DNA from: Candidatus Woesearchaeota archaeon
GTDB taxonomy: Archaea > Nanobdellota > Nanobdellia > Pacearchaeales > GW2011-AR1
Assembly: GCA_964384965.1 (NCBI GenBank)
Contig: CAYLLR010000001.1
Location: 2,568 to 66,567 of the forward strand
Reading direction: 5' to 3'
Length of the DNA stretch: 64,000 nt
The position numbers and the translations under genes are program-made. Below the pieces are notes generated by a model. It was not told the DNA's origin. It saw nothing but the letters and a program-made list of their open reading frames with translations, and did not search any database. Positions 628-45,587 of the stretch are shown here, piece after piece (position 1 is the stretch's first letter; the number at the start of each line of letters is the position of its first letter).

Positions 628-675
628 TTTTTAATTTTCTAAAAAACAAAGTATTTAAAATTCAATTTCATTTGG

Positions 676-1272: not shown

Positions 1273-1334
1273 TGTTCCAAAAATTAACGAAGAATTTAAA
1301 AAAGAGAATTCCCTTTAAAAATAGTGGAATTAAA

Positions 1335-1928: not shown

Positions 1929-1974
1929 AATGAAAATGATTAAAAAGAGGCGTGATTTAAATTAAATAAAGAAA

Positions 1975-7671: not shown

Positions 7672-8081
7672 AATATGAATTTTCTCCGAGTTTGCAGGTT
7701 CTTGCCGAGGACATTGCGAGGAGGATTTTTCCACATATAAAAATTGAGAGAGTAAAATGTTTTAGAAGTTATGGTTCTTCGACGAAGCATACAATTGCGA
7801 GGTGTCATGCGTTGGGAAAAATTATGCAAGAAGCGATGGGGGTTGACGCCTTTTATGCTTTGGAATTTCTTGGAGAAAAATTCAATAAAATGAAAAAAGA
7901 GGAAAAAATAAAAGTAGTTATTCATGAACTTATGCATATTCCAGAAAGTTTCGGAGGGGGGTTTAAGAATCATAATGTTGTGACAGATAAGAATATTAAG
8001 GAGTGTTATAAGGTTTATCTTGATTGTGTTAAAAATGAAAAAAAAATTGATTGGTTTAAATTTAAAAGGAAAAAAAATTAA
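7668..8081 (+). CDS. Putative HExxH zinc metallohydrolase (DUF45/YgjP-like).
   Basis: VIHELMHIPESFGGGF motif. Confidence 0.4.
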   Translation: MKYEFSPSLQVLAEDIARRIFPHIKIERVKCFRSYGSSTKHTIARCHALGKIMQEAMGVDAFYALEFLGEKFNKMKKEEKIKVVIHELMHIPESFGGGFKNHNVVTDKNIKECYKVYLDCVKNEKKIDWFKFKRKKN

Positions 8082-12178: not shown

Positions 12179-14071
<1,893 letters not shown>

Positions 14072-18175: not shown

Positions 18176-19702
18176 TTAATTTTTACTAATTTTGAACTTT
18201 TCGTTAGGGATTTTGAACTTCTCGATTATTTCTCTGTTTTCTTTTGAATTTTTAATATATATAATTACAAAATCATCTACATATATCGGAATCCATGTGG
18301 GATCTTTTAGTCTTTCAATTAAAAATTGTTGGCCCCAGGGAGTCATATCTTTTCTATAAAAATATATTATATTTAGATTATATTTTTTTTCGTATTTTTT
18401 CCAAACTTCTTTATTTTCTTGTATTGGAATATAAACTTCTTTGAAAAATTTTACAGAATATGCTTCTGGACGATTATCTACAAAAACTTTTTCTTTTGGA
18501 AATAAATTTAGTATGAGATATCCCCCTATATCATAATTATTAAATATTGGGCCTTCTAAATTATTTTCTTTAAAAAAAGTAATGGAGTTTAAATTATTAT
18601 TTAGAAGTCCAATTCCTGTTGAGGGATTTAAGGAAAAATAATTTAATCCTGCAATTATAAATGTAATGATTATAACTATAGAAATTGAAATTATTTTTAA
18701 GATTTGTTTTTTTGTTAATTTATTATAAAAACTCTTTAAATTTTCAGATAATATCGGAATTAAAACTAATCCAAATATTGTTATGTTTCTTGTCATTTTC
18801 CATGCTAAAGTTCCAAAAAATAAGAATAAGAGAATATTAAGCACATTTTCTTTAATGGTTTTTTTTGATATGAAAAAACTAATGGTTCCTAATAAGAAAA
18901 TTAATTCAAAATAGAGATAAAGTGGATTGTAAAATCTGGTTTGCATAAAAATAATGCTCATGTTTTCTGCAAGAAGATATCCATATTCCCTGAAGATTAA
19001 AAGCGGTTCTAACAGGCCCTTTATGAAAAAGGGATTAATGAGTGAGGCCAAAATTAGTCCTCCAAGCAAAATTAAATATTTTTTGAATTTTTCTTTTTTG
19101 TTAAAGTAACTGTGGATTGTGAAAAAGGAAGCGATACTTATTCCAAAAATGAAAAATATGTGAATGTTTACCCAAATTATTTGGGTTGGGATTAAAATTA
19201 AAAGTAATTTTTTATATTTAATTTTATTTTTTTCAAATTTAAAGAGCAAAAAGTAATAAAATGCTAAGAAGAAATAACTAAGGACTTCCGGTCTTATTTC
19301 TTTTCTATGGATTATGAGGGGGATTAATAAAATAGTGAGAAAAATTGCAAGTTTATAGTCTCCTTTTTCTTTTGCCAGAATAAAAAATAGCATGAATGAT
19401 AAGAGATATATTAAAATGTTTATTAGGGATAGTCCTTGGAATCCAGTCAATTTCCAAATCAAATAAGCAATAGCTCCATACCCCCAATGATGGGTTATTG
19501 TTGGATAATTATTTTCTGTGTAAGAGTAAAAATTTGTTGATAGTATTTTTCCTTCGTTGAAGAATATTTCTCCGTTTTTTATGTGTCTTCCTATGTCTGA
19601 GTTTGAGAGATTTATTTTTTGAGCATAAGAAAGTGAAAGAATAATTATTAAAAAAACTAAAGGAATTAATTTTTTGTAATTTTTTTTTGAGTCCTTTTTC
19701 AT
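18176..19702 (-). CDS. Polytopic integral membrane protein with a C-terminal soluble domain; possibly a GT-C fold glycosyltransferase.
   Basis: About 11 hydrophobic helices followed by a roughly 150-aa hydrophilic C-terminus. Divergent neighbour is a Dpm1-like GT2. No WWDYG motif was seen, so an AglB assignment is not supported. Confidence 0.4.
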   Translation of the reverse strand: MKKDSKKNYKKLIPLVFLIIILSLSYAQKINLSNSDIGRHIKNGEIFFNEGKILSTNFYSYTENNYPTITHHWGYGAIAYLIWKLTGFQGLSLINILIYLLSFMLFFILAKEKGDYKLAIFLTILLIPLIIHRKEIRPEVLSYFFLAFYYFLLFKFEKNKIKYKKLLLILIPTQIIWVNIHIFFIFGISIASFFTIHSYFNKKEKFKKYLILLGGLILASLINPFFIKGLLEPLLIFREYGYLLAENMSIIFMQTRFYNPLYLYFELIFLLGTISFFISKKTIKENVLNILLFLFFGTLAWKMTRNITIFGLVLIPILSENLKSFYNKLTKKQILKIISISIVIIITFIIAGLNYFSLNPSTGIGLLNNNLNSITFFKENNLEGPIFNNYDIGGYLILNLFPKEKVFVDNRPEAYSVKFFKEVYIPIQENKEVWKKYEKKYNLNIIYFYRKDMTPWGQQFLIERLKDPTWIPIYVDDFVIIYIKNSKENREIIEKFKIPNEKFKISKN

Positions 19703-25755: not shown

Positions 25756-26577
25756 ATGGATGAAGATATATGGGCAGAGTTTGGGAAAAATTTAGTAGAG
25801 GTTAAAAATTTTGATTATTTTCCCTCGGAATGGACTGGGGGAGATTTTTGTGAATATTTTATTGATTATGCTAAAGAACATAAAAAAGATTTTTGTGAGG
25901 AAAAAGATTTTCCAGTTTTTGAATCGTTATCAAATTTAGAAAAAAAATTTGTTGGTTTCTTAAAAGTACCCTATAAAAAAATTATTTTAAATGGAGATCT
26001 TAGTGAAGCGGATTTTATTTTTGTTAAGTCGGGGAAGATAAGGTATCTTCAAAAAGATTTTGGAGAGCAGGATGCATTAATACAAAAAGTTCAAGTGTTT
26101 TTTGATAAAAATTTTTACCTTGAAAAAAAATATTATTTTGATTTAGGGGAATTTTATAATTCTCAAGAAAGTTTTAATCATTATAATTGGAGAGTTCTTT
26201 TAAATAATTTGGGAAAACCGGATGAAAAATTAATACCCGAAGATTTGGATATTCCCCTTGTATATATTTCCAGAGGCGTTAAGTTTAGTTTGGGAAATGG
26301 TTTTTTTTCAAGATATGTTCAATGGAGCAAACATAATTTTTCCCTATTTTTTTATAAGCAACCCAAAGAAAGAGAAGTGGGATATTTTGTGTTCAATTCT
26401 AAAAAGAATCTCTCCCACATCAAATATATTGATGAAATAAATAAAAATCCTTTTATTTTGAAAGATATTAGTAAAATGCAATCTCTCTTTAAAAATTTGA
26501 AGATTTTTCCAAATAATTTATCTTTTAAACTGCTTAGTGAAATTAAACCGGATAAATTTAAAAAATTATTTTTATAA
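25756..26577 (+). CDS. Uncharacterised protein, paralog 1 of a tandem three-member family.
   Basis: Shares DYFPSEW...EYFIDYA and a central block with the next two ORFs. Confidence 0.45.
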   Translation: MDEDIWAEFGKNLVEVKNFDYFPSEWTGGDFCEYFIDYAKEHKKDFCEEKDFPVFESLSNLEKKFVGFLKVPYKKIILNGDLSEADFIFVKSGKIRYLQKDFGEQDALIQKVQVFFDKNFYLEKKYYFDLGEFYNSQESFNHYNWRVLLNNLGKPDEKLIPEDLDIPLVYISRGVKFSLGNGFFSRYVQWSKHNFSLFFYKQPKEREVGYFVFNSKKNLSHIKYIDEINKNPFILKDISKMQSLFKNLKIFPNNLSFKLLSEIKPDKFKKLFL

Positions 26578-26578
26578 A

Positions 26579-27277
26579 ATGGAATTTGATTTAATGTGTG
26601 AATTTAACAGAAAAATGGAAGAGTCAAGGAAAGGATTTGGATATTTTCCAAAGGAATGGAAATCTCCTTTTTATGTCAAGGAAGAATTTATTGATTTTGC
26701 AAGACATTCTTTAGACGGGGTAGGTCTTGAAAAAATTAATTCTGAATATGGCATAGACAAAGATTCTTATACTGGTTTTATTAGAAATTATTCTAAAATA
26801 GACAATAATTTTGATAAGTTTTATAGTTATTTTAAAGAGGGGGTTTTACGTTATTCTCAGTCTGAATTGAACTCTGGAAAGATAAAAGTAATAAAAACTT
26901 CTTTTTTAAGTGAACCTTTTGAAATTATGAGAACTTATTTTGGTTCTCCTGGTTTAGGAAATCTTTCAAAACCTGTTTTGGGTGTTGTCAAGAGGATTGG
27001 AACATTTAATTTAAGTGAAGATTTTTCTATTAAAATTTTTCAACATGGGTTAGATTCTTTTGATATTTATTTTTTGAAAGTTGGTTCATTTAAACTCGGT
27101 TTTTCTATAAATGAAGGGGATATAAGAGATAGAAAATATCTTTCTTTAATAAAAAATTTCCCACTAATTTTTTATGACAGCGAAGGAATTAAAGAATATT
27201 TTGGGGATATTCTCATTAAGGAAAGAGGAGGGAAAAAAATTAAAATTGAAGATTTTTTAATTGAAAATGGAATTTGA
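26579..27277 (+). CDS. Uncharacterised protein, paralog 2. The ORF track starts at 26537; MEFDLMCEF at 26579 is preferred.
   Basis: MEFDLMCEFNRKMEESRKGFGYFPKEW..EFIDFA. Confidence 0.45.
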   Translation: MEFDLMCEFNRKMEESRKGFGYFPKEWKSPFYVKEEFIDFARHSLDGVGLEKINSEYGIDKDSYTGFIRNYSKIDNNFDKFYSYFKEGVLRYSQSELNSGKIKVIKTSFLSEPFEIMRTYFGSPGLGNLSKPVLGVVKRIGTFNLSEDFSIKIFQHGLDSFDIYFLKVGSFKLGFSINEGDIRDRKYLSLIKNFPLIFYDSEGIKEYFGDILIKERGGKKIKIEDFLIENGI

Positions 27278-27974
27278 TTTAATGTGCTTGTTTTATGACC
27301 GGTTGGAAGAGTCAAAAAAGGGGTTTGATTATTTTCCTAAGGAATGGGAAGAGTTAGCGAATGGGTCTGAATATTTTATCGATTTTGCAATGAATTATTC
27401 AAAGGGGGGAAATAGAAAAATAATTTCAATTAAAAGATATTTAGTTCCAGATTCTTTTAGTGGATTTGTTAAAATCGGAGAAGAAGAATGCGAGAAAGCA
27501 AAGATTAAGAAAGGATTTTATCATATTAAGGAAGGGAAAATAGATTATTTACAACAAGAATTTTTTTTGAAAAATTGTCTTATTAAACAGACCTCCTTTA
27601 TTACAGAACCCTTCTTAATCCGGAGGGTATATATGGGTTTTGAAGGAAATTTTGGAGGGAAAAATTTTCCACTGGTTAGTGTCACAAGGGTGGGTTCTTT
27701 TCCCAAAGAAAAAGAATTATCTATAAGAGTTTTTCAAAATTCAAAAAATCGTTTTAATATTTCTTTTCTCAAGGAATACAAAGAACTTTTCAATTTTAAT
27801 ATTGATTCCAAAAAATATCCTTTTCACAAAGATTTGGTTTCCATAATTCATTCCTCTCCCTTGGTTTTTTCTGATTTTGAAATTCTAAAAACATATTTTA
27901 AAGGAAAAAAATTTGAAATAAAGGAAGGAAAGAAAAGTTTTCTGACCGAATTTGATAAATTTATTCATAAATGA
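27267..27974 (+). CDS. Uncharacterised protein, paralog 3 (alternative start 27261).
   Basis: MEFDLMCLFYDRLEESKKGFDYFPKEW..EYFIDFA. The gene-junction DNA is conserved with the 26579 junction. Confidence 0.45.
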   Translation: MEFDLMCLFYDRLEESKKGFDYFPKEWEELANGSEYFIDFAMNYSKGGNRKIISIKRYLVPDSFSGFVKIGEEECEKAKIKKGFYHIKEGKIDYLQQEFFLKNCLIKQTSFITEPFLIRRVYMGFEGNFGGKNFPLVSVTRVGSFPKEKELSIRVFQNSKNRFNISFLKEYKELFNFNIDSKKYPFHKDLVSIIHSSPLVFSDFEILKTYFKGKKFEIKEGKKSFLTEFDKFIHK

Positions 27975-28003: not shown

Positions 28004-29140
28004 TTATTTTTTAAAAATAGTAATTATTCTTTCTTTTCCCGTTTGTAAATCTTTTATTAAAAATTTCTTTTTTTCTATTTCTTTTTTCCCAACGAAAATC
28101 ACTTTTTTTATTCCATAACTATTTGCATATTCTAAGGCCTTCGACGGTTTTCCAAAAAAAAGACTTACATTGTTCCCACATTTTCTTAATTGTTTTGAAA
28201 TTTCAATTGCTTTTTTATCCTGGTCTAAAGAGACAATTAATGTTTTGTCAATATCAATCAAAATTTTTGAAGCAACCATCAATCTTTCAATACTAAAAGA
28301 TATTCCGGAAGATTCCACCCCTTCAACAAGGTAAGTTCCTCCTCCGCAAATGGTCTCTTTTATTCCTGATTTTACTTCAAAAACATTTCCAGTGTAATAA
28401 GATAGTCCTCTCGCAAGAGCGGGGGAGAATTTTAGTTCGACGCCATAGAATTTTGAGTATTTTTTTAATTCTTCAATTTCAGAGTATGCTTTATATTTTT
28501 TAAAAAATTCTTCTGGCTTTTTTACAATTTCTAAAAGTTTTTCAGCTCCAATTTTTTTTAAATTTTTTTTGACCTCTTTTTCAGGAAGTTTATCAAGTTT
28601 GTCTAATTCTCGTATTGCCTCTTCCTTGTTTTTTATGTTTTGTCCGTCGAGAATTTCATTTAAAAGTTTTCTATTATTTATATAAATAGTGAAATTTATT
28701 TTTAGTGCGTCTAAAATTTCTTTAACAACCGAAAGAATTTCTGCTTGATCTTTTATAGAAGCTCCTACGGTGTCAATATCGCATTGACTAAATTGTCTTA
28801 ACCTGTTTCCGGTAATTGGCTCATCTCGAAATACCGGACCGATTTGAAATCTTTTAAAAGGAAGTTTTTTATTTTTTGCTATTCTTTTCAGTTGAAATGT
28901 AAATTCGTATCTTAAAGCCAATCTTCTTTTTCCCTTATCTCTAAGTTTAAAGATATCTGAAACAGCTTCATCTTCTGAATTTTCGCCTTTAACAAATTCT
29001 TCATATTCAATAATTGGCGTCTCAATTTCTTGAAAATTATATTTTTCAAATGTTTGCTCCGCTATTTTTCGGATGAACGCGAATTTTTCGCCTTCTTTAC
29101 CTATTTTGTCCTTAAAACCCTTTACTGTTTCTGTTTTCAT
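28004..29140 (-). CDS. hisS: Histidyl-tRNA synthetase, class IIa (short form).
   Basis: N-terminal VKGFKD, class II motifs, GGGTY near the C-terminal anticodon-binding domain. tRNA-His lies immediately upstream. Confidence 0.65.
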   Translation of the reverse strand: MKTETVKGFKDKIGKEGEKFAFIRKIAEQTFEKYNFQEIETPIIEYEEFVKGENSEDEAVSDIFKLRDKGKRRLALRYEFTFQLKRIAKNKKLPFKRFQIGPVFRDEPITGNRLRQFSQCDIDTVGASIKDQAEILSVVKEILDALKINFTIYINNRKLLNEILDGQNIKNKEEAIRELDKLDKLPEKEVKKNLKKIGAEKLLEIVKKPEEFFKKYKAYSEIEELKKYSKFYGVELKFSPALARGLSYYTGNVFEVKSGIKETICGGGTYLVEGVESSGISFSIERLMVASKILIDIDKTLIVSLDQDKKAIEISKQLRKCGNNVSLFFGKPSKALEYANSYGIKKVIFVGKKEIEKKKFLIKDLQTGKERIITIFKK

Positions 29141-29151
29141 TTTTTAATATA

Positions 29152-29224
29152 AGCGGAAGGGGGGAGTCGAACCCCCGTTACACGGACCACAACCATGCGT
29201 CATAACCGTTAGACCACAACCGCC
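29152..29224 (-). tRNA. tRNA-His (anticodon GUG) with encoded G-1 and no encoded CCA.
   Basis: On the minus strand: T-arm GGGGG-TTCGACT-CCCCC; anticodon arm CATGG-TTGTGGT-CCGTG (U33, GUG, G37); U8, A14, G18 present. The acceptor stem contains two adjacent U-U mismatches (5-68, 6-67). Confidence 0.6.
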
Positions 29225-30092: not shown

Positions 30093-30497
30093 ATGATTAT
30101 GGATAAAAACTATAGGTTTTTTTTGATTTTGTTTATTGCAATCTTCTTAGTCGTTGGTTTGTTTTTTGTTTTTAATTCAAATTCCCCGAACGATAAAAAA
30201 GGTAAAATTTCGAAAGGTCTAAACGTGAAAGAATTTAATTTAATTGCTAAGCAATTTGAATTCGTTCCGGGGGTTATTAAAGTTAATGAAGGAGATAAGG
30301 TTATTCTTCATATCGAAAGTATCGATGTTGAACACGGGATTGGAATTTTTCAATTTGGGGTGAATAAGATTCTCCCCGTCGGACAAAACGTAACGGTCGA
30401 ATTTGTTGCTAATAAAAAAGGGACTTATTATTTCTTCTGCACCGTTTATTGTGGGGTTGGTCATGGTAATATGAGGGGAAAATTAATTGTAAATTAA
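30093..30497 (+). CDS. Membrane-anchored cupredoxin with a CuA-type (COX2-like) metal-site motif.
   Basis: N-terminal TM. HGIGI... then FFCTVYCGVGHGNM, i.e. C-x3-C-G-x2-H-x2-M spacing. Confidence 0.55.
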   Translation: MIMDKNYRFFLILFIAIFLVVGLFFVFNSNSPNDKKGKISKGLNVKEFNLIAKQFEFVPGVIKVNEGDKVILHIESIDVEHGIGIFQFGVNKILPVGQNVTVEFVANKKGTYYFFCTVYCGVGHGNMRGKLIVN

Positions 30498-30498
30498 A

Positions 30499-30870
30499 AT
30501 GGATTATAAAAAATTATCCCCTCCAATTTTGAGGTACGGAATTGGACTTGTTTTTTTAGTATTCGGAATTTGGCAAATAATCTCTCCGAACTATTGGGCA
30601 GGTTATCTTCCGTCTTACACTTTAAGTTTTGGAGTTTCCGCCAATTTAATGATTTTCTTAAATGGGGTTCTTGATTTATTCATTGGTGGAGGGTTGGTTT
30701 TGGGAATTTATTTGAGGTTTTTTTCAGCTTTGGGAATCTTGAGGATTTTGGTGATTATTTTTTCTTTAGGATGGAACGATGTGACCATTAGAGATATTGG
30801 AATCCTTTTTGCTTTAATTTCAATTTTTTTAAATGGAAAGGATGATTTTTGTTTGAGAGATTTTTTATAG
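30499..30870 (+). CDS. DoxX-family membrane protein.
   Basis: ILRYGIGLVFLVFGIWQI... with four TM segments. Start is 2 nt after the cupredoxin stop. Confidence 0.5.
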   Translation: MDYKKLSPPILRYGIGLVFLVFGIWQIISPNYWAGYLPSYTLSFGVSANLMIFLNGVLDLFIGGGLVLGIYLRFFSALGILRILVIIFSLGWNDVTIRDIGILFALISIFLNGKDDFCLRDFL

Positions 30871-31029: not shown

Positions 31030-32856
31030 TTGGAATGTATGGAAAGTGCTTCAAAATCAATGTTTGGGATTTTAATTTTTTTAACTATTCTTCTTAGCGT
31101 TAGTTTTGTTAGCGCGACTATTGATACGGTTATTATAAATTACAACAGTGATAACATAAACTACAATTATTCAGTTATAGGAAGGAGTTATGACCTTTAT
31201 GTTTCTGGAACAAATCTAACGCAGATAAATGATTCTGAGTTAGAATTTGTAAGGAAATTGGGAGAAAATACATTTCAATATAAATTTACTCCAGGAAATA
31301 TTGCCGGACTAAGGACTTTCGGAACAGGGGAAAATCAATTTAATCTAAGTGTTTTAAGCGAGGCAGACGAACTTTCAAATTCTATTGGGAGTGTCATAAT
31401 AAATATAACCGATGATTCTTCGTCCATTAATGTAAATGATTTTAGTTTGGAAAATAAAATAGTAAGAATGCTTAATGTTAGTGATGTTGCAGATTTGAAT
31501 ATAGATTATCTATTGGATTTGAATCTTTTGTTAAATGGATTGACTTTTGATTTAAATTTTAATAAAGGTTCTGCATATCCACAATATAATAGTGTAAATA
31601 TAAATAGTTCTCCTGCTATAACCGTTATTGAAAACTTAATTAGATTTAATAATTTACCTTCTTATATGACTGTTGATGAGATTAACACTGGTCACTTTGA
31701 ATATTTAAATGAGCTTATTGATGCATATGGTGCAAATATAACTTACCCTTCAAATTCTCGTGTGGTTAAAGAGGGAAACAATTTTGAATTTTTTTCGGAT
31801 GATGGATATTCCACTTTGAATAGAAATGATTTAGAAAATGCTCAAGAGATTATTAATGAGAAAATCAAGTATATTAATCCAGATGAGGTCATTAATGAGC
31901 TTCTTCCATTAGGAAATTTCTCAGAATTCAAAAAATTTGTTGATTTTAATGTTTCTGTTGATTTTGGTAATTTGGAAATTTTAGAAAGTGGAACGTATAA
32001 TCTAACTCTTATCTATACAGATAAGTATGGTAATAACGGGACGATGCCTTTCATTGTGAATTTGAATGTTACGAATGTAGGTTATGAGGAAAGCGTTGAT
32101 TCTAATGGGACGGTAACTTTTACGAGTCCGGTAGTGAACCAGACTTTGGAGAGAATTGAAAATCTCCCCCAAAACATAACAATAACTCCAATTTTGTATG
32201 GGGTAAATAAGCCCTCTGGTTTTGCAGGTCTTCCACAGAATGTTCATTCTTTAAATTTTATGCAAATAAATTCCAGTAATGATAGCAAAACAAATAATGG
32301 TTCATATTCTTTATATTTTAGGATATTGACCTCTTCAATCGATTCAAATTACAAAGATAATGTTAGTTTGTATATTCAAGAAGGAAATAGCTGGATTAAG
32401 TTGCCCACAATATTGATTAATGAAACTTCTGAATATTATATGTATAATTCCACAATCCCCCATTTTAGTAATTACCTTATAGGATATTACCAAGAAAGTG
32501 TTTCTTCAGGAGGGGGATCTTCTTCAGGAGGTTCTTCAGGAGGGGGATCTTCTTCTGTGGGAAGTTCTAGAACTACAAAGCCAATTTCTTTAATTTCAGA
32601 ACCCACCTCTCCTAAAAGCCCAGCTTTTCCTTCGGAGCCTCTCAATTTAAGCAATCCTTCAGATAACCCTTCAGGATTATTTGGAATAACTGGTGCTGCT
32701 ATTGGAGCTCTCTCTTCTCCGGGAGGGATAGGGATAATCCTTTTTGTTTTGATTCTTCTTGCCCTATTAATTATTTTGAGAATAAAGAGAAGGGAAAATA
32801 AAAAGAAATCTTCTAAAAAATTAAATTCTGGTGGTGATGGAATTGGTGAAAAATGA
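31030..32856 (+). CDS. Large sequon-rich surface protein with signal peptide, Gly/Ser linker, Pro-rich segment and C-terminal TM anchor.
   Basis: Hydrophobic N-terminus. (S/G) repeats, PTSPKSPAFPSEP, GIGIILFVLILLALLIILRIKRRENKKK. Confidence 0.55.
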   Translation: MECMESASKSMFGILIFLTILLSVSFVSATIDTVIINYNSDNINYNYSVIGRSYDLYVSGTNLTQINDSELEFVRKLGENTFQYKFTPGNIAGLRTFGTGENQFNLSVLSEADELSNSIGSVIINITDDSSSINVNDFSLENKIVRMLNVSDVADLNIDYLLDLNLLLNGLTFDLNFNKGSAYPQYNSVNINSSPAITVIENLIRFNNLPSYMTVDEINTGHFEYLNELIDAYGANITYPSNSRVVKEGNNFEFFSDDGYSTLNRNDLENAQEIINEKIKYINPDEVINELLPLGNFSEFKKFVDFNVSVDFGNLEILESGTYNLTLIYTDKYGNNGTMPFIVNLNVTNVGYEESVDSNGTVTFTSPVVNQTLERIENLPQNITITPILYGVNKPSGFAGLPQNVHSLNFMQINSSNDSKTNNGSYSLYFRILTSSIDSNYKDNVSLYIQEGNSWIKLPTILINETSEYYMYNSTIPHFSNYLIGYYQESVSSGGGSSSGGSSGGGSSSVGSSRTTKPISLISEPTSPKSPAFPSEPLNLSNPSDNPSGLFGITGAAIGALSSPGGIGIILFVLILLALLIILRIKRRENKKKSSKKLNSGGDGIGEK

Positions 32857-34361
32857 AATTTTTAATAGCTTGTTTAATGTTCTTTTTTGTAGTCTTTCCC
32901 CTTGTAAGTGCTAACGTTCAGTTTGTTCCCTTGCCTTATAAGGAGACTTTGAGTCCTTCGAGAATCTCTGGAACGACGAATATTAATTTTGAAATTAAAG
33001 ACTCCAGTGGAAATCCCATACAAAACGCATTAATAACAATTCAGGGAATTTCAAATCAGGGATTTAGTCAAAATTTATTCACGGATGAAAATGGGAAAGC
33101 GTCGACTTCGTTGGCTAGTAACGAAATTTTTGTGTATACCATCTATAAATTCACTTATGAACTTTTGACAAATGGATTTTTTACTAATTCTAACAAAAAT
33201 ATTCAATTAACTCTCAATAAAATTCCAGATAACAAGTGGTACTTTTATTACGAAAATAATGGGGAGATTGAAGTTCAATTAAAAAGCTTGGATAATGACA
33301 CAATTTATGTTCCTGGAGAATACATAAATCAAGTTTTACAAATAAAGAATGTTTTAGGGAGAAATTTTGATTTAGTTAAAGATAAAACTTTGGCCGTGAC
33401 TGTGGATAGCAAAACTCTAAACAAAATTAATTGGTGGGGAAGCATTTTACCTTATGATTCTTTGTTACAATTAACATTAAAACCGAACGGGTGGGTAAAA
33501 GCGACTATAAAAGGAGATATTTTTGAAGTTTGTGTTGGTAATGCTATTGGGAAATATCAGGATAAGTCTTTTGATGTTTCAGGTGCTGAGTTTATATGTG
33601 AACAAGAAAATAATGCTAAGAATCCTCCTAATTTGGTTCCGGATTGGATATTAAATAACACGTATAAGCTTGACATAAGTATAGCCTATAGTTTGGATAA
33701 TCAAGAAAAAAACTTCAAATTATTAACCCAAGATTTTTTTATAAAAAACGGAGAATGGAAACCCAAAATTAATTCGGTTCCAGAAACAAATTTGAATATT
33801 AACGAAAATTGGATTTATGATATAACTCCTAAATATAAAACAAATTTTATTTCATATACTCTTTTGGAATCTCCGTCGGGAATGACAATTGATTCAGTTG
33901 CAGGTATCGTAAAATGGAAACCGACAAAATCCGGAAGATATAACGTTACGTTGAGGGGGTCTCACTTTTATTTTGCTAACGATTCAAGAATGGCTTATAG
34001 AGATCAAAGTTTTGTTTTAAATGTAAAAAATCCTAATGCAAATTTGTATGCAGATAGATTATATCTTTTTAACAAAAATGTAAAAGTTGGAGATTTTGTT
34101 AGGGCTAAATTTATAGTTCACAATAACGATGACAAAACCAATTCATTTTCTTACAAAATTGAAAAGGGAGATGGTAATTCAATTGAGTATAATTTGGCTA
34201 ATCTTTCTCCAGGAAGTGATAGAACCATTTATACTTCGTGGAGTTATGGAAAGGAGGGATTATTTACTCCTAAACTAATTATAGATCCACAAAACAAAGT
34301 TTATGAGAAAGATGAAAATGATAATATAAAAAATTTTGAGGGGGTCAATGTAACAAATTAA
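32853..34361 (+). CDS. Secreted protein with a C-terminal CARDB-like domain.
   Basis: Signal MKFLIACLMFFFVVFPLVSA. C-terminal ..LSPGSDRTIYTSWSYGKEGLFTPKLIIDPQNKVYEKDENDN matches the CARDB pattern. Overlaps the previous ORF by 4 nt. Confidence 0.55.
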   Translation: MKFLIACLMFFFVVFPLVSANVQFVPLPYKETLSPSRISGTTNINFEIKDSSGNPIQNALITIQGISNQGFSQNLFTDENGKASTSLASNEIFVYTIYKFTYELLTNGFFTNSNKNIQLTLNKIPDNKWYFYYENNGEIEVQLKSLDNDTIYVPGEYINQVLQIKNVLGRNFDLVKDKTLAVTVDSKTLNKINWWGSILPYDSLLQLTLKPNGWVKATIKGDIFEVCVGNAIGKYQDKSFDVSGAEFICEQENNAKNPPNLVPDWILNNTYKLDISIAYSLDNQEKNFKLLTQDFFIKNGEWKPKINSVPETNLNINENWIYDITPKYKTNFISYTLLESPSGMTIDSVAGIVKWKPTKSGRYNVTLRGSHFYFANDSRMAYRDQSFVLNVKNPNANLYADRLYLFNKNVKVGDFVRAKFIVHNNDDKTNSFSYKIEKGDGNSIEYNLANLSPGSDRTIYTSWSYGKEGLFTPKLIIDPQNKVYEKDENDNIKNFEGVNVTN

Positions 34362-34362
34362 G

Positions 34363-35067
34363 ATGAAAATTAAAAATCTTTTAGCAACAACTTTGGTCGG
34401 TTTTTCTTTGTTGTCTCTTCCAAAATTGAATGCGCAAACATATGATTCTTTAAAAACCGTCGAAGTTGCGAAAAATTTAGAAAATCATGGCTTCAATTTA
34501 AAGGGGTATCTCTTGAATAAGCCATTTCAGTTTCAGGTAGATTATGGAGGAAATTCAAGAATAATTAACGGTCCCCTTGTTGCAGAAAAAGACGAAAATG
34601 ACAATTTAATGATTTATCCAATTTTTGTTGCTTTTAATAAAAATAATTCTGAAACAAGAATGGATAAAGATTTTATCGATAATTATGGGGGATTAGGGTT
34701 TATATTAGATGATAATAATGTGCCTCCTTCAGTTTATGCAGATTCAATAAGGAAACTTTTAAAGGGAAATATAACGGGAGTAAAAATTAAAGTCAGAAAT
34801 AGGTTGGAATCAAAGCTGGAAGGAATCTACCCAAATCCAAGTAATGGGTCTGTAAATGTAAAATATTTCTTAAAAAAGTTTGAAAATGTGAGTTTTGATG
34901 TTTATGATATCCTGGGAAGAAAAGTTTATTCATTTGAAGGAAAAGAAGGTGAGAGAATTAAAAGAATTAATACGGGGGATTTATCCTCGGGAATTTATTT
35001 TTTGAGAATGAATTATAAAAATGAAAGGAAATTGGGAGAGATTAGAAAGTTCATAATTTTAAAATAG
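34363..35067 (+). CDS. Secreted protein with a bacterial T9SS-type C-terminal sorting domain (Por secretion tail).
   Basis: N-terminal SLLSLPKLNAQ. C-terminal YPNPSNGSVNVKYF..VYDILGRKVYSF..SSGIYFLRMNYKNERKLGEIRKFIILK matches all conserved blocks of the Por_Secre_tail consensus. Confidence 0.6.
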   Translation: MKIKNLLATTLVGFSLLSLPKLNAQTYDSLKTVEVAKNLENHGFNLKGYLLNKPFQFQVDYGGNSRIINGPLVAEKDENDNLMIYPIFVAFNKNNSETRMDKDFIDNYGGLGFILDDNNVPPSVYADSIRKLLKGNITGVKIKVRNRLESKLEGIYPNPSNGSVNVKYFLKKFENVSFDVYDILGRKVYSFEGKEGERIKRINTGDLSSGIYFLRMNYKNERKLGEIRKFIILK

Positions 35068-35098
35068 ATTCTATATCTTAAATTTATATAATATAAAA

Positions 35099-36184
35099 AT
35101 GTTAAAAAATAAATCTAAAAATATGAATAAAATTAAAAATAATTTATTTTATCTTTTGCCTTTTTTATTTTTATTCAATTTGCAAAGTACAAGGGCACAA
35201 TTTAAAATTGAATCAAACTCAAAAAATTTTGACTTAAAAAGTAAATATTTTGAGGTTGCTGCGAGAGATACTTTTGGATTAAAAGATATGGTGAATATAA
35301 AGGGAATTGTAAAACTAAAGTATGACAATAATTCTCTTTATTTCAAAAGAAATGGACTTCTTAATCATTCTTATGGGGGAAACATCGATTTAAATGTGAT
35401 TGAGTTTTATTATAACCAATCGAAACAAAATATAAAAACTGAAAAATTTACAACTCAAGATTCTCCCTTGGGAAAAATAATAACAAATACTTCAATACTT
35501 AATAAGGACAGAATGAAAGAAATGGGGGTCGCTTTAAATTATAAAGATTTTTTCATTAGTTTTGAAAATGCGAAAAAAAACAATGAGGTTGATGGACAAA
35601 CTTTAATAAAAGTTAACGAAGAAAAAGCTTTAACTTTTTTTAATTTCAATTTCAATAACGAGACATCTATTTTTGGTGCAGGATTTAAATATGGATTTTT
35701 TAAGTTTATACAAAATAAGAAAGATGGAGATAAATTTAAAGATTATTTTGCTAAACTCAATTACAAAGGAATAAATCTCTATTATGCAAAGGATTTTGCA
35801 GGTTTTTTTAGTTTTAATCTTTTTGATAAGATTAACTTTGATATTAGTTATGATAAAAAAATAAAAATAAATTTGGCAACTTCTGATTATTCAAAACTCA
35901 ATAAACGAAAATTTGAAAGAAATTTGGAAAATAGGTTAAGGATTGTTCCAAGAATTTATGATTCAAATTTAGAAACTTCAAAAAATTATTTGGAAGATAT
36001 GTTTTTCACAGATTTGTATAGTTTTTCCCTCAATAAAGATGAAATAAATGCAAATCTTAATTTTAAAAATATATTATTTCATTATTCTAAAGATAGTTGG
36101 AAAATTGGTTTAAGGTATAAATTTTTAATTACAACATACGATTTTTATAAAAAAGAGGCAAAATTAGGATTGTTTTTTGACTGA
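35099..36184 (+). CDS. Secreted protein of unknown function, possibly a beta-rich outer-membrane-like protein.
   Basis: Signal peptide ending STRAQ, N/K/F/Y-rich alternating pattern, 361 aa. Confidence 0.4.
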   Translation: MLKNKSKNMNKIKNNLFYLLPFLFLFNLQSTRAQFKIESNSKNFDLKSKYFEVAARDTFGLKDMVNIKGIVKLKYDNNSLYFKRNGLLNHSYGGNIDLNVIEFYYNQSKQNIKTEKFTTQDSPLGKIITNTSILNKDRMKEMGVALNYKDFFISFENAKKNNEVDGQTLIKVNEEKALTFFNFNFNNETSIFGAGFKYGFFKFIQNKKDGDKFKDYFAKLNYKGINLYYAKDFAGFFSFNLFDKINFDISYDKKIKINLATSDYSKLNKRKFERNLENRLRIVPRIYDSNLETSKNYLEDMFFTDLYSFSLNKDEINANLNFKNILFHYSKDSWKIGLRYKFLITTYDFYKKEAKLGLFFD

Positions 36185-36226: not shown

Positions 36227-37027
36227 ATGAAGGTGATAAAATCTTCCGGAGAATTGGAGAGGTTTGCTTCCAAAAAAATTTATTATACGATTCGGGATGC
36301 CGGAGGATCAAAAAGATTGGCTAAAGATGCGATTAAATTGATTAAAAAAAAATATAGTTCTGAGGTTTCTACGAAGGAAATTTTATTGACGCTTTTAGAT
36401 TTTTTGAAAAGGGAAAAGGGAGTTTCTGAAAAATATGATTTAAAGAGAGCAATTATGTCTCTTGGACCCAGCGGCTTTCCGTTTGAGAGCTTTTTTGCGA
36501 GAATCTTAGATTATTATGGATACAAAACGAGTGTGGGCAATAAACTCAAAGGAAAAATAATTTATCATGAGGTAGACATTGTAGCTATAAAGGATGGTGA
36601 AAAGTTTATGATTGAGGCAAAATATCATAATGAAAAAGGGACAATTACAAGGCTAAAACCTGCAATGTATACCTATGCTCGCTTTCTCGATTTAAAAAGA
36701 CAAAAATTTAATGCTCCTTGGCTTGTGACAAATACAAGGTGTTCTCAAGATGCAATAAATTATGCGAAAGGTGTTGGACTTAAAATGACTGCTTGGAAAT
36801 ATCCAAAAAAAGGTAATTTACAGGAGTTAATTATGGAAAAAAATTTGTACCCTATTACAATTTTAAAAAGTTTGCCCTTGGAGGGAATAGAAAAATTATA
36901 TGATTTGAAAATTCTTGTTGCAAAAGACCTCTTGAAATTTTCTCCCAAGGAGATTTCTAAAAAAATAAAAATTGATGAACAAACTGCTACTAAGATTTTA
37001 GAAGAAGCGGAGGCAGTTTCTTTTTAG
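36227..37027 (+). CDS. ATP-cone domain fused to a PD-(D/E)xK (Mrr-like) nuclease domain, with a C-terminal HhH motif.
   Basis: MKVIKSSGELERFASKKIYYTIRDAG (ATP-cone). HEVDIVAIKDGEKFMIEAKYH (D...E.K). Helix-hairpin-helix-like segment near the C-terminus. Confidence 0.6.
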   Translation: MKVIKSSGELERFASKKIYYTIRDAGGSKRLAKDAIKLIKKKYSSEVSTKEILLTLLDFLKREKGVSEKYDLKRAIMSLGPSGFPFESFFARILDYYGYKTSVGNKLKGKIIYHEVDIVAIKDGEKFMIEAKYHNEKGTITRLKPAMYTYARFLDLKRQKFNAPWLVTNTRCSQDAINYAKGVGLKMTAWKYPKKGNLQELIMEKNLYPITILKSLPLEGIEKLYDLKILVAKDLLKFSPKEISKKIKIDEQTATKILEEAEAVSF

Positions 37028-42965: not shown

Positions 42966-45587
42966 ATGAAAAATAAACAAATTTTTTTGCTGGCTTTGGT
43001 AATTTTTATTGTACCATTTGTTTCGGCTTCCTATACTTTATTTAACCATACTCTTCAAGACCAATATTCTAAGGGTTCATTTATTTCCGGCAATCTTGAT
43101 ATTTCATTTCAAAATGAACCAATTAATTCCGTATTTACCGACTCATTCCAAAATAAAGTGACTCTCCAAGACCTTATCATAAATTCAAAGGATTATTCTT
43201 ATGTTTGTGAATATCCAAATTGTGAGTCGAAATTTAAAGAGGTTAATCTCGCAAATCTTTTCTCGTTTAATTTGAATAAGGGGGAAGAAGCGTTTTATGG
43301 GATTGTTTTTGATCAAAATTTGACGAAGATAAACTCAATGAGTTTTGATTTAGAAAGTGATGCAAAAGAATCACCTACAAGTCAAATTTCAGTTGATTTT
43401 TTAAATGACGGGGTTATAGATTTGGAAAATACTAAAGTTGGAAATAAAGTTTCAGAGAATAAAAATTTTGGTTGTTTTAATTCTTCAAAAAAACAAACAG
43501 AACTATTTCTTACTTCTACACCATATTGTCAAGAAGTTTTTCTTAATGAATCTCCGGGAGCCAGGATTGGGGCGTGGGTGAAGGAAGTTACGGCGAGTCC
43601 GGTAAACATATCGATGACTCTTTTTGATGGAACGGGGGATTTGGTTGGGGGTTGTTTGCTTTCAAAAAATTATATAACAGGAGAAGGAAATGTAACTTTT
43701 TGTGATATTAATAAACCAATAAAAAATGAAAATTATTATGTTTGCATCGGAGTTGACGGGGCGGGAGAAGGAAATTACAAAACGAGAGGGCATTCTCAGA
43801 AAAATAATTGTGGATTTCAAGGCACACCCATAAAATCACCAGTTTATTCATATCAAATAGGTGCTATTCAAAAATATTTTGGAAATGTTGGAACCCTAAC
43901 TATTTCAAATGCCCTCCCAAATGGTAAAAATCTCTCCAAAATGGTTGAAGATTATATCTTTTCAAAATATGGGGGTTTGGATTGTTCATTGAATAAATGT
44001 TACATTCCAATAAGGATTATTTCGTCGATGAATCAATCCATTCTACTAAAGAATTTGAATGTAAATTATGATTTTGTGGGAGGGTCCGTAGCAATTAATG
44101 AATTTTCTAAGTTTGAAGAAGATTCCTCTAAAATTAACGCGTCACGAGGGAAACTTTCTTTTGGGCAATTTTTTAAGCTCCCGAATGAGGAAAAAAATTT
44201 GTCATATAAATTATATTATAAAGGGAAAAAACTTTTTAGCGAAAAAATTTCAATAAAAGATTTTAAAATAAATCTTTATCCGAAAAAGGTTGCAGTTAGT
44301 TTTCCCTCTAACTTTTTTTTATATCTTCCGAAAGAATTAAATCCCTCTGTTTATAAGTGGGATTTTGGAGATGGTCAATTTAAAATTACTTCCGAACCAA
44401 ATGTAAAACATACTTATCTTTCTAAAGGGGATTTCACCCTTAAACTAATTATTTTAACAAAGGTGGGAAAAATTTCAAAAGTTTTTAACATTAAAGTCGG
44501 CTCGGCCAAGGAGATTTTGAAGTCAGAGATTGAGAAGAGAAAAAAAACTCTCAAAGAATTTGAAAAATTTGTTGCAAATTTGGATGATTTTGAGAAATCT
44601 CAAGTTGAAAAAGTAGTGGATCTCTTTCAACTAAGGAAAAATTTATCCCTAATTGAAGGTAGAGAAAAGATTGCAATTTCGGATGAAGATTATAATAAAA
44701 TAATTTCTGAATTTTTGAGTTTGCGTTTTCCTTCTTATCTTCAAAATGTAAAAATTTCAAAATCTTTCATAAATCCTTTAAATAGTGAAATTAACCTTGA
44801 GCCTCTTAAGGCTTTGTCTAAAAGAAAATATAATGACTCAAAGAAAACTTATGATTACATAAAATTTTGGAACCTTGAAAATTTAAATACTGATGTTGAG
44901 CAAAATAAAATTTTGATTGGGTGGGAAGATGGAAAAGAATCGGACATTCAAATTTTTGATTTGTCAATAATTCCTTCTAAGGGAATCAATGAAGATTATT
45001 ACCTTTTTGTAAGAGATGTTGGAAATTTGGAGTTTAAAGACAATTCAAGGGTAAAAAAAGTAGAAGGGTATAAATATGTTAAATTGAACGATAGGAAAGA
45101 GAGTTTCACTTTTTCGGTGGAACAAAATTTTCCAATAGAAGATTATCTTTTTATTTCACCATCCAATATAACCATAGTGGATTTTCCAAAAGTTCAAGAA
45201 GCAAAATCAAAAACTTGGATAATTTATCTGGGATTGATTGGGGTATTTTTAATTGGGCTTTTGATTTATTTGATGGTTCAAAGATGGTACAAACTAAAAT
45301 ATGAAAAGTACCTTTTCCCCGATAAAAATCAGTTGTACAATGCAATTATTTATATTAACAATTCAAGGAAGGGAGGTATGGAGGAAGAGGAAATAAGAAA
45401 AAATCTTATAAAAGTTGGATGGAAGAGAGAACAGGTTAGTTATCTTTTGAAAAAATATTCTGGAAAAAGGACCGGAATGGTAGACATATTCGGATTTTTT
45501 AAGAAAAAAGAGACTTTTTCGGACCCTCCAAACCCAGGTAGAAATGTGGAGTTTAAAAGTTCTCAAGATACAAAATTTAATAAATAA
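42966..45587 (+). CDS. Large surface protein with signal peptide, PKD-like domain, C-terminal TM and cytoplasmic tail.
   Basis: MKNKQIFLLALVIFIVPFVSA. WDFGDGQF...KHTY..GDFTLKLII (PKD). TM WIIYLGLIGVFLIGLLIYLMV followed by about 100 aa. Confidence 0.6.
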   Translation: MKNKQIFLLALVIFIVPFVSASYTLFNHTLQDQYSKGSFISGNLDISFQNEPINSVFTDSFQNKVTLQDLIINSKDYSYVCEYPNCESKFKEVNLANLFSFNLNKGEEAFYGIVFDQNLTKINSMSFDLESDAKESPTSQISVDFLNDGVIDLENTKVGNKVSENKNFGCFNSSKKQTELFLTSTPYCQEVFLNESPGARIGAWVKEVTASPVNISMTLFDGTGDLVGGCLLSKNYITGEGNVTFCDINKPIKNENYYVCIGVDGAGEGNYKTRGHSQKNNCGFQGTPIKSPVYSYQIGAIQKYFGNVGTLTISNALPNGKNLSKMVEDYIFSKYGGLDCSLNKCYIPIRIISSMNQSILLKNLNVNYDFVGGSVAINEFSKFEEDSSKINASRGKLSFGQFFKLPNEEKNLSYKLYYKGKKLFSEKISIKDFKINLYPKKVAVSFPSNFFLYLPKELNPSVYKWDFGDGQFKITSEPNVKHTYLSKGDFTLKLIILTKVGKISKVFNIKVGSAKEILKSEIEKRKKTLKEFEKFVANLDDFEKSQVEKVVDLFQLRKNLSLIEGREKIAISDEDYNKIISEFLSLRFPSYLQNVKISKSFINPLNSEINLEPLKALSKRKYNDSKKTYDYIKFWNLENLNTDVEQNKILIGWEDGKESDIQIFDLSIIPSKGINEDYYLFVRDVGNLEFKDNSRVKKVEGYKYVKLNDRKESFTFSVEQNFPIEDYLFISPSNITIVDFPKVQEAKSKTWIIYLGLIGVFLIGLLIYLMVQRWYKLKYEKYLFPDKNQLYNAIIYINNSRKGGMEEEEIRKNLIKVGWKREQVSYLLKKYSGKRTGMVDIFGFFKKKETFSDPPNPGRNVEFKSSQDTKFNK

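Follow-up and report, generated by a model that had tools for sequence, protein, structure and literature searches.

The window, by which we mean the whole stretch of 64,000 nucleotides of DNA that was analysed, comes from a Pacearchaeota-type DPANN archaeon (GTDB Nanoarchaeota). Its archaeal genes, noted as such in an earlier sequence-only reading of the DNA, include those for aCPSF1, the archaeal CCA enzyme, Rad50/Mre11, L7Ae, S24e, Rpb7 and diphthamide synthase. An ORF check bore out the arrangement and coordinates given in that reading for four co-directional, partly overlapping genes at 31030–36184, here termed g1 to g4 (Table 1). The first two genes overlap by 4 nt, g2 and g3 are 1 nt apart, and 31 nt separate g3 from g4.

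Table 1. Genes of the operon and the features of their products (nucleotide positions are those of the window)
Gene or feature	Residues (aa)	Nucleotides	Strand	Remarks
g1		31030–32856	+	608 aa
g1 signal peptide	N-terminal		+	Of a membrane-anchored surface glycoprotein
g1 PGF-pre-PGF domain	409–484	32254–32481	+	TIGR04213
g1 Ser/Gly/Pro-rich linker	Between PGF-pre-PGF domain and TM helix		+
g1 C-terminal TM helix	About 567–585	32728–32784	+	Followed by 23-residue basic tail
g2		32853–34361	+	502 aa
g2 Big_1/MG4/CarboxypepD_reg-like domain	41–97	32973–33143	+	Pfam
g2 region with no domain assignment	About 200 aa, between Big_1/MG4-like domain and He_PIG		+
g2 He_PIG	309–374	33777–33974	+	Pfam
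g2 CARDB, C-terminal	413–493	34089–34331	+	Pfam PF07705
g3		34363–35067	+	234 aa
g3 signal peptide	1–24	34363–34434	+	Cleavage between A24 and Q25, placed by eye
g3 orphan N-domain	25–150	34435–34812	+
g3 T9SS type A-like C-terminal domain	155–234	34825–35064	+	PF18962, TIGR04183
g4		35099–36184	+	361 aa
g4 probable true start	M9	35123	+
g4 signal peptide	Ends between A33 and Q34	35197	+	Cleavage site placed by eye
g4 helix-loop-helix insert	262–298	35882–35992	+	Highly conserved

In its anchoring, g1 resembles archaeal surface glycoproteins: it has a PGF-pre-PGF domain, with a marginal NCBIfam score (31 bits versus a cut-off of 28), an enrichment of N-x-S/T sequons (23 observed versus 13 expected from composition) and a C-terminal TM anchor. 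It differs from the PGF-CTERM/archaeosortase type in that the NCBIfam scan, at E up to 1, gave no match to the PGF-CTERM sorting signal (TIGR04126). The product of g2 is a secreted protein that has several Ig domains but lacks its own anchor, and Pfam confirmed the CARDB-like domain previously proposed for it (32.8 bits versus a gathering score of 22.7). CARDB also exceeded the gathering score in three related loci (L006, L013 and L016); it was detected at loci that have the tail, all four tail-less loci tested gave no match, and it was under Pfam detection in both distant type I loci (defined below). An “EKDENDN” block said to be common to g2 and g3 proved to be only a 10-residue match (E 0.07) that the g3 family does not keep, and the link formerly drawn from CARDB and this block between the two proteins carries no meaning in the form given.

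The C-terminal tail of g3

The third gene encodes a small secreted adaptor-like protein. The T9SS type A tail that had been recognised in it by its motifs exceeded the curated cut-offs of both models searched: PF18962 (Por_Secre_tail) matched residues 155–224 with 59.1 bits and an E-value of 5e-16 (gathering score 27), and TIGR04183 scored 44.9 bits (cut-off 23). A profile built from the archaeal tails matched the solved cargo tails of Flavobacterium johnsoniae 8GLK_D (E 1e-6) and 8GLJ_D, and among named tails the closest come from Ignavibacteria and Bacteroidota. These sequence matches identify the g3 tail as a genuine T9SS type A C-terminal domain. Relatives scored 33–40 bits, with the exception of the tails of locus L024 (19.8 bits, under the gathering score) and locus L026 (detected by the archaeal-tail HMM only).

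Within the g3 family alignment the pattern YPNP.NG...Y..LG...SG.YFLR was invariant, and the tail motif positions do not vary between archaeal lineages whose tail domains are only about 45% identical. When 14 archaeal tails were aligned with the solved F. johnsoniae NucA tail, the PNP, G..Y, SG.Y and terminal K..K positions were conserved, and the domain ran to the stop codon in all of the archaeal tails. The AF2 model of g3 has six beta strands in the tail region (pLDDT 70–85) and a pLDDT below 50 in the N-domain. A Foldseek search with this model listed the C-terminal domain of T. forsythia mirolase (8qb1) and PorZ among generic Ig-like matches, none of which had E <1e-3.

The predicted barrel g4 and the signal peptides

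Structure prediction for g4 gave, with confidence, a large beta-barrel (pLDDT 87.5) of about 22 beta segments whose predicted strands are amphipathic. The fold of the model resembles only outer-membrane and mitochondrial barrels, at low Foldseek TM-scores (0.13–0.42), and suggests that g4, which is predicted to be Sec-exported, is a large beta-barrel of outer-membrane type. No Pfam family matched g4 at E up to 1, distant family members had no Pfam match either, and the NCBIfam scan of g4 returned a single, spurious match. No PorV or PorP/SprF model (TIGR03519/PF11751) matched g4, and a g4 profile found nothing among PDB sequences. The family is tiny and was met in archaeal contexts only, with no bacterial homolog among 1.84e9 representatives. 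The suggestion that g4 is an outer-membrane-type partner therefore stands at the level of predicted fold, but not at that of sequence, where it belongs to no known T9SS barrel family.

The signal-peptide ends reported earlier, NAQ in g3 and RAQ in g4, are both present, and their Gln is invariant in the two families. Read by eye, the g3 signal peptide has a positively charged n-region, a hydrophobic h-region and an A-x-A-like site. Cleavage sites read in the same manner place Gln at +1 in 10/10 small tail proteins and about 17/18 barrels, as opposed to about 3/13 g1 and 2/12 g2 proteins. In Bacteroidetes, the Q-rule describes Gln at +1 of signal peptidase I substrates, which is cyclised to pyroglutamate (PMC5837995, PMC10653852), and the sequences of the archaeal tail proteins and barrels appear to agree with that rule (PMC5837995), since an invariant Gln directly follows A, S or G at the inferred site in both. 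They depart from it in that the host is archaeal and that no glutaminyl cyclase family was detected among the window ORFs scanned.

Linkage of tail and barrel in archaea

Archaeal flanks and common synteny accompany the four-gene cassette, which was found in about 25 independent archaeal lineages. The tail gene lies directly 5′ of the barrel gene in 17/25 informative lineages, often with a 4-nt overlap, and this adjacency was seen in all three deep clades and in all six distant branches sampled. A search of about 404 kb of related DNA with the archaeal-tail HMM detected no further tails away from barrel loci. The tag is strictly tied to a dedicated barrel gene. Such a pairing was unexpected in archaea, where it has apparently not been described previously.

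Two architectures were distinguished. In type I, which includes the window, a separate small adaptor protein bears the tail, whereas in type II the tail is fused onto a g2 domain and there is no separate adaptor, the N-terminal ~250 aa region of g2 being joined straight to the tail (BLAST E 1e-20 to 3e-27). Homologs of g1 are present in every cassette, on the 5′ side in type I and 3′ of the barrel in type II. The remaining 8/25 lineages have kept the barrel with no adjacent tail gene, which implies that the barrel has a tail-independent role or that its partner is encoded elsewhere. The barrel phylogeny agrees with the tail architecture and indicates about three losses of the tail, with two nested losses having taken the g2 CARDB domain and g3 together. 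At tail-less loci g2 has either a membrane helix or a truncated end, and in the tail-lost subclade it carries its own C-terminal TM helix, as in archaeal C-terminal TM anchoring. For the tail-barrel route itself we found no archaeal precedent.

A putative docking pair

The closest counterpart of the g3 tail is the cargo of the SprA-PorV-cargo complex of F. johnsoniae (PDB 8GLJ/8GLK), with which it has in common the tail family (PF18962/TIGR04183), a putative N-terminal export signal, a C-terminal tail and, as we propose, recognition by a beta-barrel. The differences are substantial: the host is an archaeon, g4 is not PorV by sequence and appears to have >14 strands, and the tail gene is genetically tied to a barrel, which is atypical for type A cargo. 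Moreover, no T9SS machinery (SprA/Sov, PorK/L/M/N, PorU, PorV) was detected among the 57 window ORFs scanned, or in the precomputed Pfam annotations of those related loci that carry gene tables. The tail of T9SS cargo is cleaved by PorU and the cargo linked to A-LPS, and archaea have no LPS. In genetic arrangement the archaeal pair is more akin to type B cargo and PorP/SprF (PG1035-PorP, SprB-SprF), in which the cargo gene adjoins a dedicated barrel gene, the barrel shuttles the tail or anchors it at the surface, and different pairs have diversified together (PMC9143113, PMC12618676). However, the archaeal tail is type A-like with no TIGR04131-type match, g4 has no PorP/SprF HMM match, and no translocon for crossing an outer membrane was detected in the sequences available.

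The reading we prefer, which we judge to have about an even prospect of being correct, is that of a vertically inherited four-gene surface operon in which an anciently acquired and domesticated tail-barrel docking pair tethers an Ig-domain protein. The core pair, the g3 tail and the g4 barrel, would be of bacterial, Bacteroidota/FCB-like, ancestry. Once exported by Sec (or, in some type II relatives, by Tat), the g3 tail would dock on the g4 barrel much as T9SS cargo tails do on PorV or PorP/SprF shuttle or anchor barrels, and g2 would thereby be tethered at the cell surface. In this scheme g3 would be the adaptor, with its orphan N-domain holding g2 by the CARDB end, and its tail holding the barrel; type II relatives would bypass the adaptor, as their g2 domain is fused straight to the tail. 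The g1 protein would be a membrane-anchored, N-glycosylated archaeal partner of the complex. Binding of tail to barrel and of g2 to g3, a role as adhesin, and a membrane or layer holding the barrel are all inferred. There is precedent in bacteria, where barrel shuttles or anchors are the binding partners of T9SS tails and the genes for type B cargo adjoin their cognate PorP/SprF genes (PMC9143113, PMC12618676). A docking pair is favoured by the genuine tail with its invariant motif, the confident barrel prediction with amphipathic strands, the tail-barrel linkage, the type II fusion, the substitution of one anchor for another, the barrel phylogeny and the Gln at +1. Counting against it, eight lineages keep the barrel with no tail gene beside it, g4 matches no PorV or PorP/SprF model and its TM-scores are low, we know of no outer membrane in DPANN archaea of this group and, to our knowledge, archaea have no BAM.

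A bolder form of this proposal, which we put forward tentatively and consider rather doubtful, is that Pacearchaeota-type DPANN run a minimal T9SS-derived system in which a true membrane beta-barrel receives a T9SS-type tag. This would imply an undescribed outer-membrane-like layer, or a barrel that is planted in a bacterial partner's outer membrane to build a contact site. If true, it would be the first such tail-barrel system in Archaea, the pair would preserve, as a molecular fossil, an old Bacteroidota-to-DPANN transfer, and it would offer a handle on the unknown hosts of these archaea.

Possibly, though we think it unlikely, surface proteins simply reuse the tail as a stable Ig-like beta-sandwich module that has no specific tie to the barrel, and the four genes have no more in common than co-expression as envelope proteins. 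The T9SS C-terminal domain fold is indeed a generic 7-strand sandwich, most Foldseek matches of the g3 model are to unrelated Ig-like domains, g1 and g2 are rich in other Ig-like domains, and eight lineages retain the barrel without the tail. A generic module would nevertheless not be expected to lie always at the extreme C-terminus and in the gene just 5′ of the barrel gene, with frequent translational coupling, or to occur in two unrelated protein contexts yet nowhere else in 404 kb; its conserved positions, the C-terminal K..K included, are those of the T9SS signal motifs.

It is less probable still that the system mimics that of a host, with the barrel inserting in the outer membrane of a T9SS-bearing bacterial partner (Ignavibacteria, Bacteroidota) and the tail engaging the PorV/attachment machinery of that partner at an episymbiont contact site. 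The Bacteroidetes-style Gln on both proteins (PMC5837995), the affinity of the tails to those of Ignavibacteria and Bacteroidota, the want of a known outer membrane in this archaeon to take the barrel, and the unknown hosts and lifestyle of Pacearchaeota (PMC11537232) are in its favour. Opposed to these are that no bacterial host of Pacearchaeota is known, that T9SS reads tails from the periplasmic side, that no bacterial homolog of g4 was found among the 1.84e9 representatives, and that a monomeric barrel self-inserting into a foreign membrane is without known precedent.

Age and origin of the operon

The comparison of codon usage and GC revealed no foreign signature in g1–g4, whose GC3 and codon usage are indistinguishable from those of the housekeeping genes of the window, and there is no compositional break in the window. 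The same gene order, flanked on either side by archaeal genes that include ribosomal, exosome and proteasome genes, recurs in independent assemblies from sites such as Crystal Geyser, Hainich and DeMMO. Synteny is also common to the window and Pacearchaeota KatS3mg001, which together with the host-like codon usage indicates that inheritance is old and vertical. It is accordingly highly improbable that a bacterial T9SS cargo gene was recently transferred to the archaeon and is now non-functional or decaying since its secretion system is absent. The tail is otherwise a feature of the bacterial FCB group and no T9SS machinery was found in the window or related loci, but the composition is that of the host, the g3 ORF is intact with 52–63% identity kept across many lineages, and the tail, whose motif residues are invariant, persists in three deep clades and has been lost about three times. 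A chimeric join of a bacterial fragment to an archaeal contig, which had nothing but the unexpected domain to commend it, can be rejected outright given the even, host-like composition, the archaeal flanks and the recurrence of the cassette in many independent assemblies from different sites.

Of the three alternatives raised in the sequence-only reading, that of a bacterial adhesin module that was acquired horizontally and kept although its secretion system is missing is upheld as regards the bacterial hallmarks of tail and barrel (the T9SS type A C-terminal domain, the predicted outer-membrane-type barrel fold and Gln at +1). It fails as regards an orphaned leftover, since the acquisition is ancient and selection acts on the tail-barrel pair in three deep clades, in an operon with an archaeal-type PGF-pre-PGF glycoprotein. 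The best fit is a sorting tag put to new use in a DPANN setting; the tag is strictly barrel-linked and occurs in two architectures.

The cassette and its encoded proteins

The four co-directional ORFs called in the sequence-only reading were upheld by our analyses, and their positions are listed in the table. Together they form what we term the cassette (g1 to g4, the last also called the barrel), in which g1 and g2 overlap by 4 nt and, by ORF reading, gaps of 1 and 31 nt separate g2 from g3 and g3 from g4, respectively. The Por secretion tail suspected in g3 was borne out, with residues 155-224 matching PF18962 at 59.1 bits (E 5e-16; gathering score 27) and the protein matching TIGR04183 at 44.9 bits (cut-off 23). 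The archaeal tails, searched as a profile, also matched two solved Flavobacterium johnsoniae cargo tails, 8GLK_D (E 1e-6) and 8GLJ_D, both from translocon complexes. The AF2 model of g3 is reliable for the tail only (six strands, pLDDT 70-85); that of the first 160 residues is unreliable (pLDDT below 50), and a Foldseek search was uninformative for this N-domain. Exact-sequence look-ups with the window g3 and with P0001 returned no match.

The CARDB domain expected in g2 was found by Pfam at its C-terminus, along with a Big_1/MG4-like N-domain and He_PIG. The EKDENDN block, which had been thought common to g2 and g3, amounts to 10 matching residues (E 0.07) without conservation in the g3 family, and we rejected it as a sign of common origin, considering it a coincidence. 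In the first protein, g1, a PGF-pre-PGF domain was recognised (TIGR04213, 31 bits versus a cut-off of 28), along with a Ser/Gly-rich linker and a TM helix at the C-terminus. Its N-glycosylation sequons number 23 where 13 are expected; judged from sequence, this enrichment supports putative glycosylation of g1 only, not of g2 to g4.

The suggestion that g4 is an outer-membrane-type partner stood in part: a barrel is predicted by AF2, and no Pfam or NCBIfam family is matched. The model, made with a 24-sequence alignment (pLDDT 87.5, pTM 0.80), is all-beta, having ~22 strand segments of which several are 22-24 residues long, and carries a helix-loop-helix insert at residues 262-298. In the short strands a strongly hydrophobic face alternates with a polar one, and Phe and Tyr make up 18% of mature g4. 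Only 27 family members were identified by profile among 1.84 billion representative proteins, and the helical insert (FER.LE.R.R ... DMFFT) is the most conserved part of the family. No Pfam domain was found in distant members, the g4 profile had no match among PDB sequences, and the genomic context is archaeal in every member where it is readable. On the basis of the model, g4 is a representative of a new, narrow family of predicted outer-membrane-type barrels.

Features of the window and of related loci (L numbers; these carry barrel or cassette homologs)
Feature	Position	Strand	Remarks
g1, surface glycoprotein, 608 aa	window 31030-32856	+	
g2, multi-Ig-domain protein, 502 aa	window 32853-34361	+	
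g3, tail protein, 234 aa	window 34363-35067	+	
g4, the barrel, 361 aa	window 35099-36184	+	
Small cupredoxin/CuA-like protein (134 aa) and DoxX membrane protein (123 aa)	window 30093-30870		134-aa protein with N-terminal anchor, COX2/NosZ C-terminal-like; directly upstream of cassette
266-aa protein	window 36227-37027		ATP-cone, Mrr-type restriction-endonuclease fold, AF1548-like C-terminal domain; immediately downstream of barrel gene
Second large putative surface protein, 873 aa	window 42966-45587		PKD domain, 14 sequons, no other annotation, no tail
ASCH-domain gene, then 'putative phage metallopeptidase'	window 7306-8081		PF18894, 74.7 bits
Bacterial-type DNA gyrase B	window 12182-14071		
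Bacterial-type DNA gyrase A	window 15671-18169		
Histidyl-tRNA synthetase (HisRS)	window 28004-29140	-	HisRS also adjoins cassette in L011
tRNA-His	window 29151-29224	-	10 nt from HisRS gene start
Sizeable ORFs, 189-509 aa	window 58-2577, 2886-4415, 18176-19702, 25756-27974		no meaningful Pfam/NCBIfam match
Metalloprotease	L011:913-1839, L021:5355-6269, L022:5355-6269, L024:3446-4381	-	weak/faint Peptidase_M10/astacin matches
Type II proteins with twin-arginine motif	L021:6793-8004, L024:5739-7004, L025:5143-6237		RRQFLK, RRKFIK, RREFLK, respectively
g2 with Cys-containing end	L010:6731-7996, L014:5758-6984, L028:1945-3177		...VYCR, ...AICF, ...AVCF, respectively

Linkage of the tail and the barrel

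Comparison of the related loci demonstrated that the tail and the barrel form a pair. The most divergent barrel homologs were sampled, and in each of these six distant branches a T9SS-type tail forms the C-terminus of the protein encoded immediately 5' of the barrel, the two genes usually overlapping by 4 nt. A search with an HMM of the archaeal tails found one tail per locus, always directly 5' of the barrel, and none elsewhere in ~404 kb. With a metagenome scan using barrel alignment A1 included, the tail gene is present in 17 of 25 informative lineages and, on the barrel tree, in each of the three deep clades. Only one subclade (L011, L018, L034, L038, L043) and two nested tips (L014/L028; L010) lack it, which argues for an ancestral tail and about three losses. 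The tail-less loci L010 and L011 had raised another reading, in which g3 is a late insertion and g4 is unrelated to the tail; the distant loci and the barrel tree overturned it.

Two architectures were identified. In type I (the window, L023 and L027), g1 is followed by g2, a small tail protein of 232-241 aa and the barrel. In type II (L021/22, L024, L025, L026), the N-terminal domain of g2 (~250 aa) is fused directly to the tail, and the order is fused tail protein, barrel and g1 homolog. The fusions match g2 with BLAST E values of 1e-20 to 3e-27, and their tails are 37-43% identical to that of g3. Type II barrels form their own clade on the barrel tree, indicating that barrel and tail architecture diversified together. 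Three type II loci have a twin-arginine export signal (RRxFLK), and one has a Sec-type signal. The twin-arginine motifs were read by eye, and the Pfam TAT_signal match is weak (E 0.087); these proteins would combine Tat-type signals with a T9SS-type tail.

As Rosetta-stone-type evidence, the fusion also indicates joint function of g2 and the tail. The C-terminus of g2 varies with the presence of a tail. Within the subclade that lacks the tail, g2 is a long protein with a TM helix of its own at the C-terminus. In L010, L014 and L028 it stops after He_PIG with a short Cys-containing end, both CARDB and g3 being missing; the Cys-containing end may be another anchoring or cross-linking signal. CARDB was detected in the tail-positive window, L001, L006, L013 and L016, and in L019 it falls slightly short of the threshold. 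The four g2 proteins tested from tail-less loci gave no CARDB match. Hence four C-terminal solutions replace one another in g2, namely a fused tail, CARDB plus a tail-bearing adaptor, a TM helix and a Cys tail, as expected if the tail anchors g2.

An archaeal module with a tail-barrel pair of probable bacterial origin

The cassette is very probably a conserved, vertically inherited archaeal module whose genuine T9SS-type tail is linked to a predicted barrel. Among the explanations offered from the sequence alone, a repurposed sorting tag is closest to the evidence. The window is archaeal, as had been stated: it encodes aCPSF1, an archaeal CCA enzyme, Rad50/Mre11, L7Ae, S24e and Rpb7, as well as diphthamide synthase, Kae1 and a bacterial-type gyrase. 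The nearest homologs of g3 and g4 come from a Crystal Geyser Pacearchaeota genome and from MAGs labelled Nanoarchaeota, Woesearchaeota or archaeon. The complete cassette recurs in independent assemblies with differing, archaeal flanks (proteasome alpha, SBDS, exosome Rrp4/41/42, Rpb6, S6e, L7Ae, S28e, L24e, S8e, L37e, LSM and S_layer_C), and the window and Pacearchaeota KatS3mg001 (L011) have common synteny at the cassette (Rpb7, S24e, ScpA, diphthamide synthase and HisRS).

The bacterial features of the cassette could also be explained by a recent horizontal transfer, which we rejected based on this recurrence and on host-like codon usage. Synonymous codon usage of g1 to g4 correlates with the window reference at r = 0.84-0.95 (0.73-0.93 for housekeeping genes), GC3 is the same in both sets of genes, and GC is ~0.30 across the window with no break at the cassette. 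The same codon usage and recurrence led us to reject a chimeric assembly.

The origin of the pair itself appears to be bacterial. The Bacteroidota-like cleavage context noted in the signal peptides extends to the family, as Gln follows the inferred cleavage site in all 10 small tail proteins and ~17 of 18 barrels (~3 of 13 in g1 and 2 of 12 in g2). An N-terminal Gln exposed on substrates of signal peptidase I, the Q-rule, has been reported to be confined to Bacteroidetes rather than spread across the FCB group (PMC5837995; PMC10653852). The nearest named tails outside the family, in a tail-only profile search covering proteins of <=158 aa only, are from Ignavibacteria and Bacteroidota (30-42% identity). 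The Gln, the tail and the barrel fold therefore suggest that a T9SS-bearing bacterium passed on the tail-barrel pair long ago and that the pair was then integrated into an archaeal surface operon. Neither T9SS machinery nor a glutaminyl cyclase was found in the window or the annotated loci.

Both T9SS tails and outer-membrane-type beta-barrels are regarded as bacterial, the tails as Bacteroidota/FCB-specific. Our full-text literature searches found no description of T9SS tails in archaea, of the cassette or of the barrel family, and the sole mention found of a DPANN porin-like protein concerns Altiarchaeales. One homolog has already been labelled by the NCBI pipeline as 'T9SS type A sorting domain-containing protein [Nanoarchaeota archaeon]', and our results indicate that such automatic labels on Nanoarchaeota archaeon proteins are not contamination. 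The novelty lies in a tail-barrel pair that occurs beyond the Bacteria and without a T9SS, and whose barrel belongs to a new family absent from Pfam and NCBIfam. The pair is conserved and co-diversifying in an uncultivated archaeal lineage, and would be a concrete case of inter-domain transfer in which the genes were domesticated, not lost.

A possible mechanism

In the T9SS, tails pass to barrels (PorV for type A, PorP/SprF-like for type B), and PorP/SprF-like proteins anchor type B cargo at the surface and are often encoded beside it (PMC9143113; PMC12618676). By analogy, the archaeal module looks like a stripped-down version of that system. The tail protein would be exported via Sec or Tat and dock by its tail on the co-translated barrel, so that the Ig-domain protein g2 would stay on the surface. 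The connection would run through the fused tail itself in type II, and in type I via the g3 adaptor and the CARDB domain of g2. In this scheme g1 would be a glycosylated, membrane-anchored partner. We regard the chances of this docking and anchoring mechanism as evenly balanced. A role in adhesion or cell-cell contact would be plausible for such an Ig/He_PIG/cadherin-like protein in a DPANN archaeon. Since the barrel persists in tail-less lineages, it must also have a role of its own, unless a partner is encoded elsewhere.

The main gap in the mechanism is a location for the barrel. We know of no outer membrane in this archaeal group and of no BAM in archaea, and Pacearchaeota have no established lifestyle or hosts (PMC11537232). 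This raises a testable question on the envelope or the partner organisms of Pacearchaeota. The module also represents a naturally minimal setting in which to study the requirements of barrel recognition by a tail, free of the T9SS and its roughly 20 components.

Neighboring genes and other features of the window

Several lineages encode, shortly upstream of the cassette and on the other strand, a metalloprotease of ~305 aa, with a CARDB match in L011 and a weak one in L024. The enzyme may process the surface proteins; among the window ORFs scanned it has no counterpart. L001 has two unannotated ORFs (134 and 125 aa) ~2 kb upstream of its cassette with other genes between, so a conserved pairing of the window's cupredoxin and DoxX genes with the cassette is speculative. 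The gyrB/gyrA genes adjoin the cassette in L025; gyrase has already been documented in archaea (PMC9348778).

The unmatched ORFs of the window are typical DPANN dark matter, and the sole match in their ranges, to IFN-gamma at 27261-27974, was rejected as spurious. The lowest GC of the window (0.25) occurs in the 18-21 kb stretch. GC also dips to 0.27 around the ASCH and phage metallopeptidase genes, a pair that is possibly a mobile-element or viral remnant.
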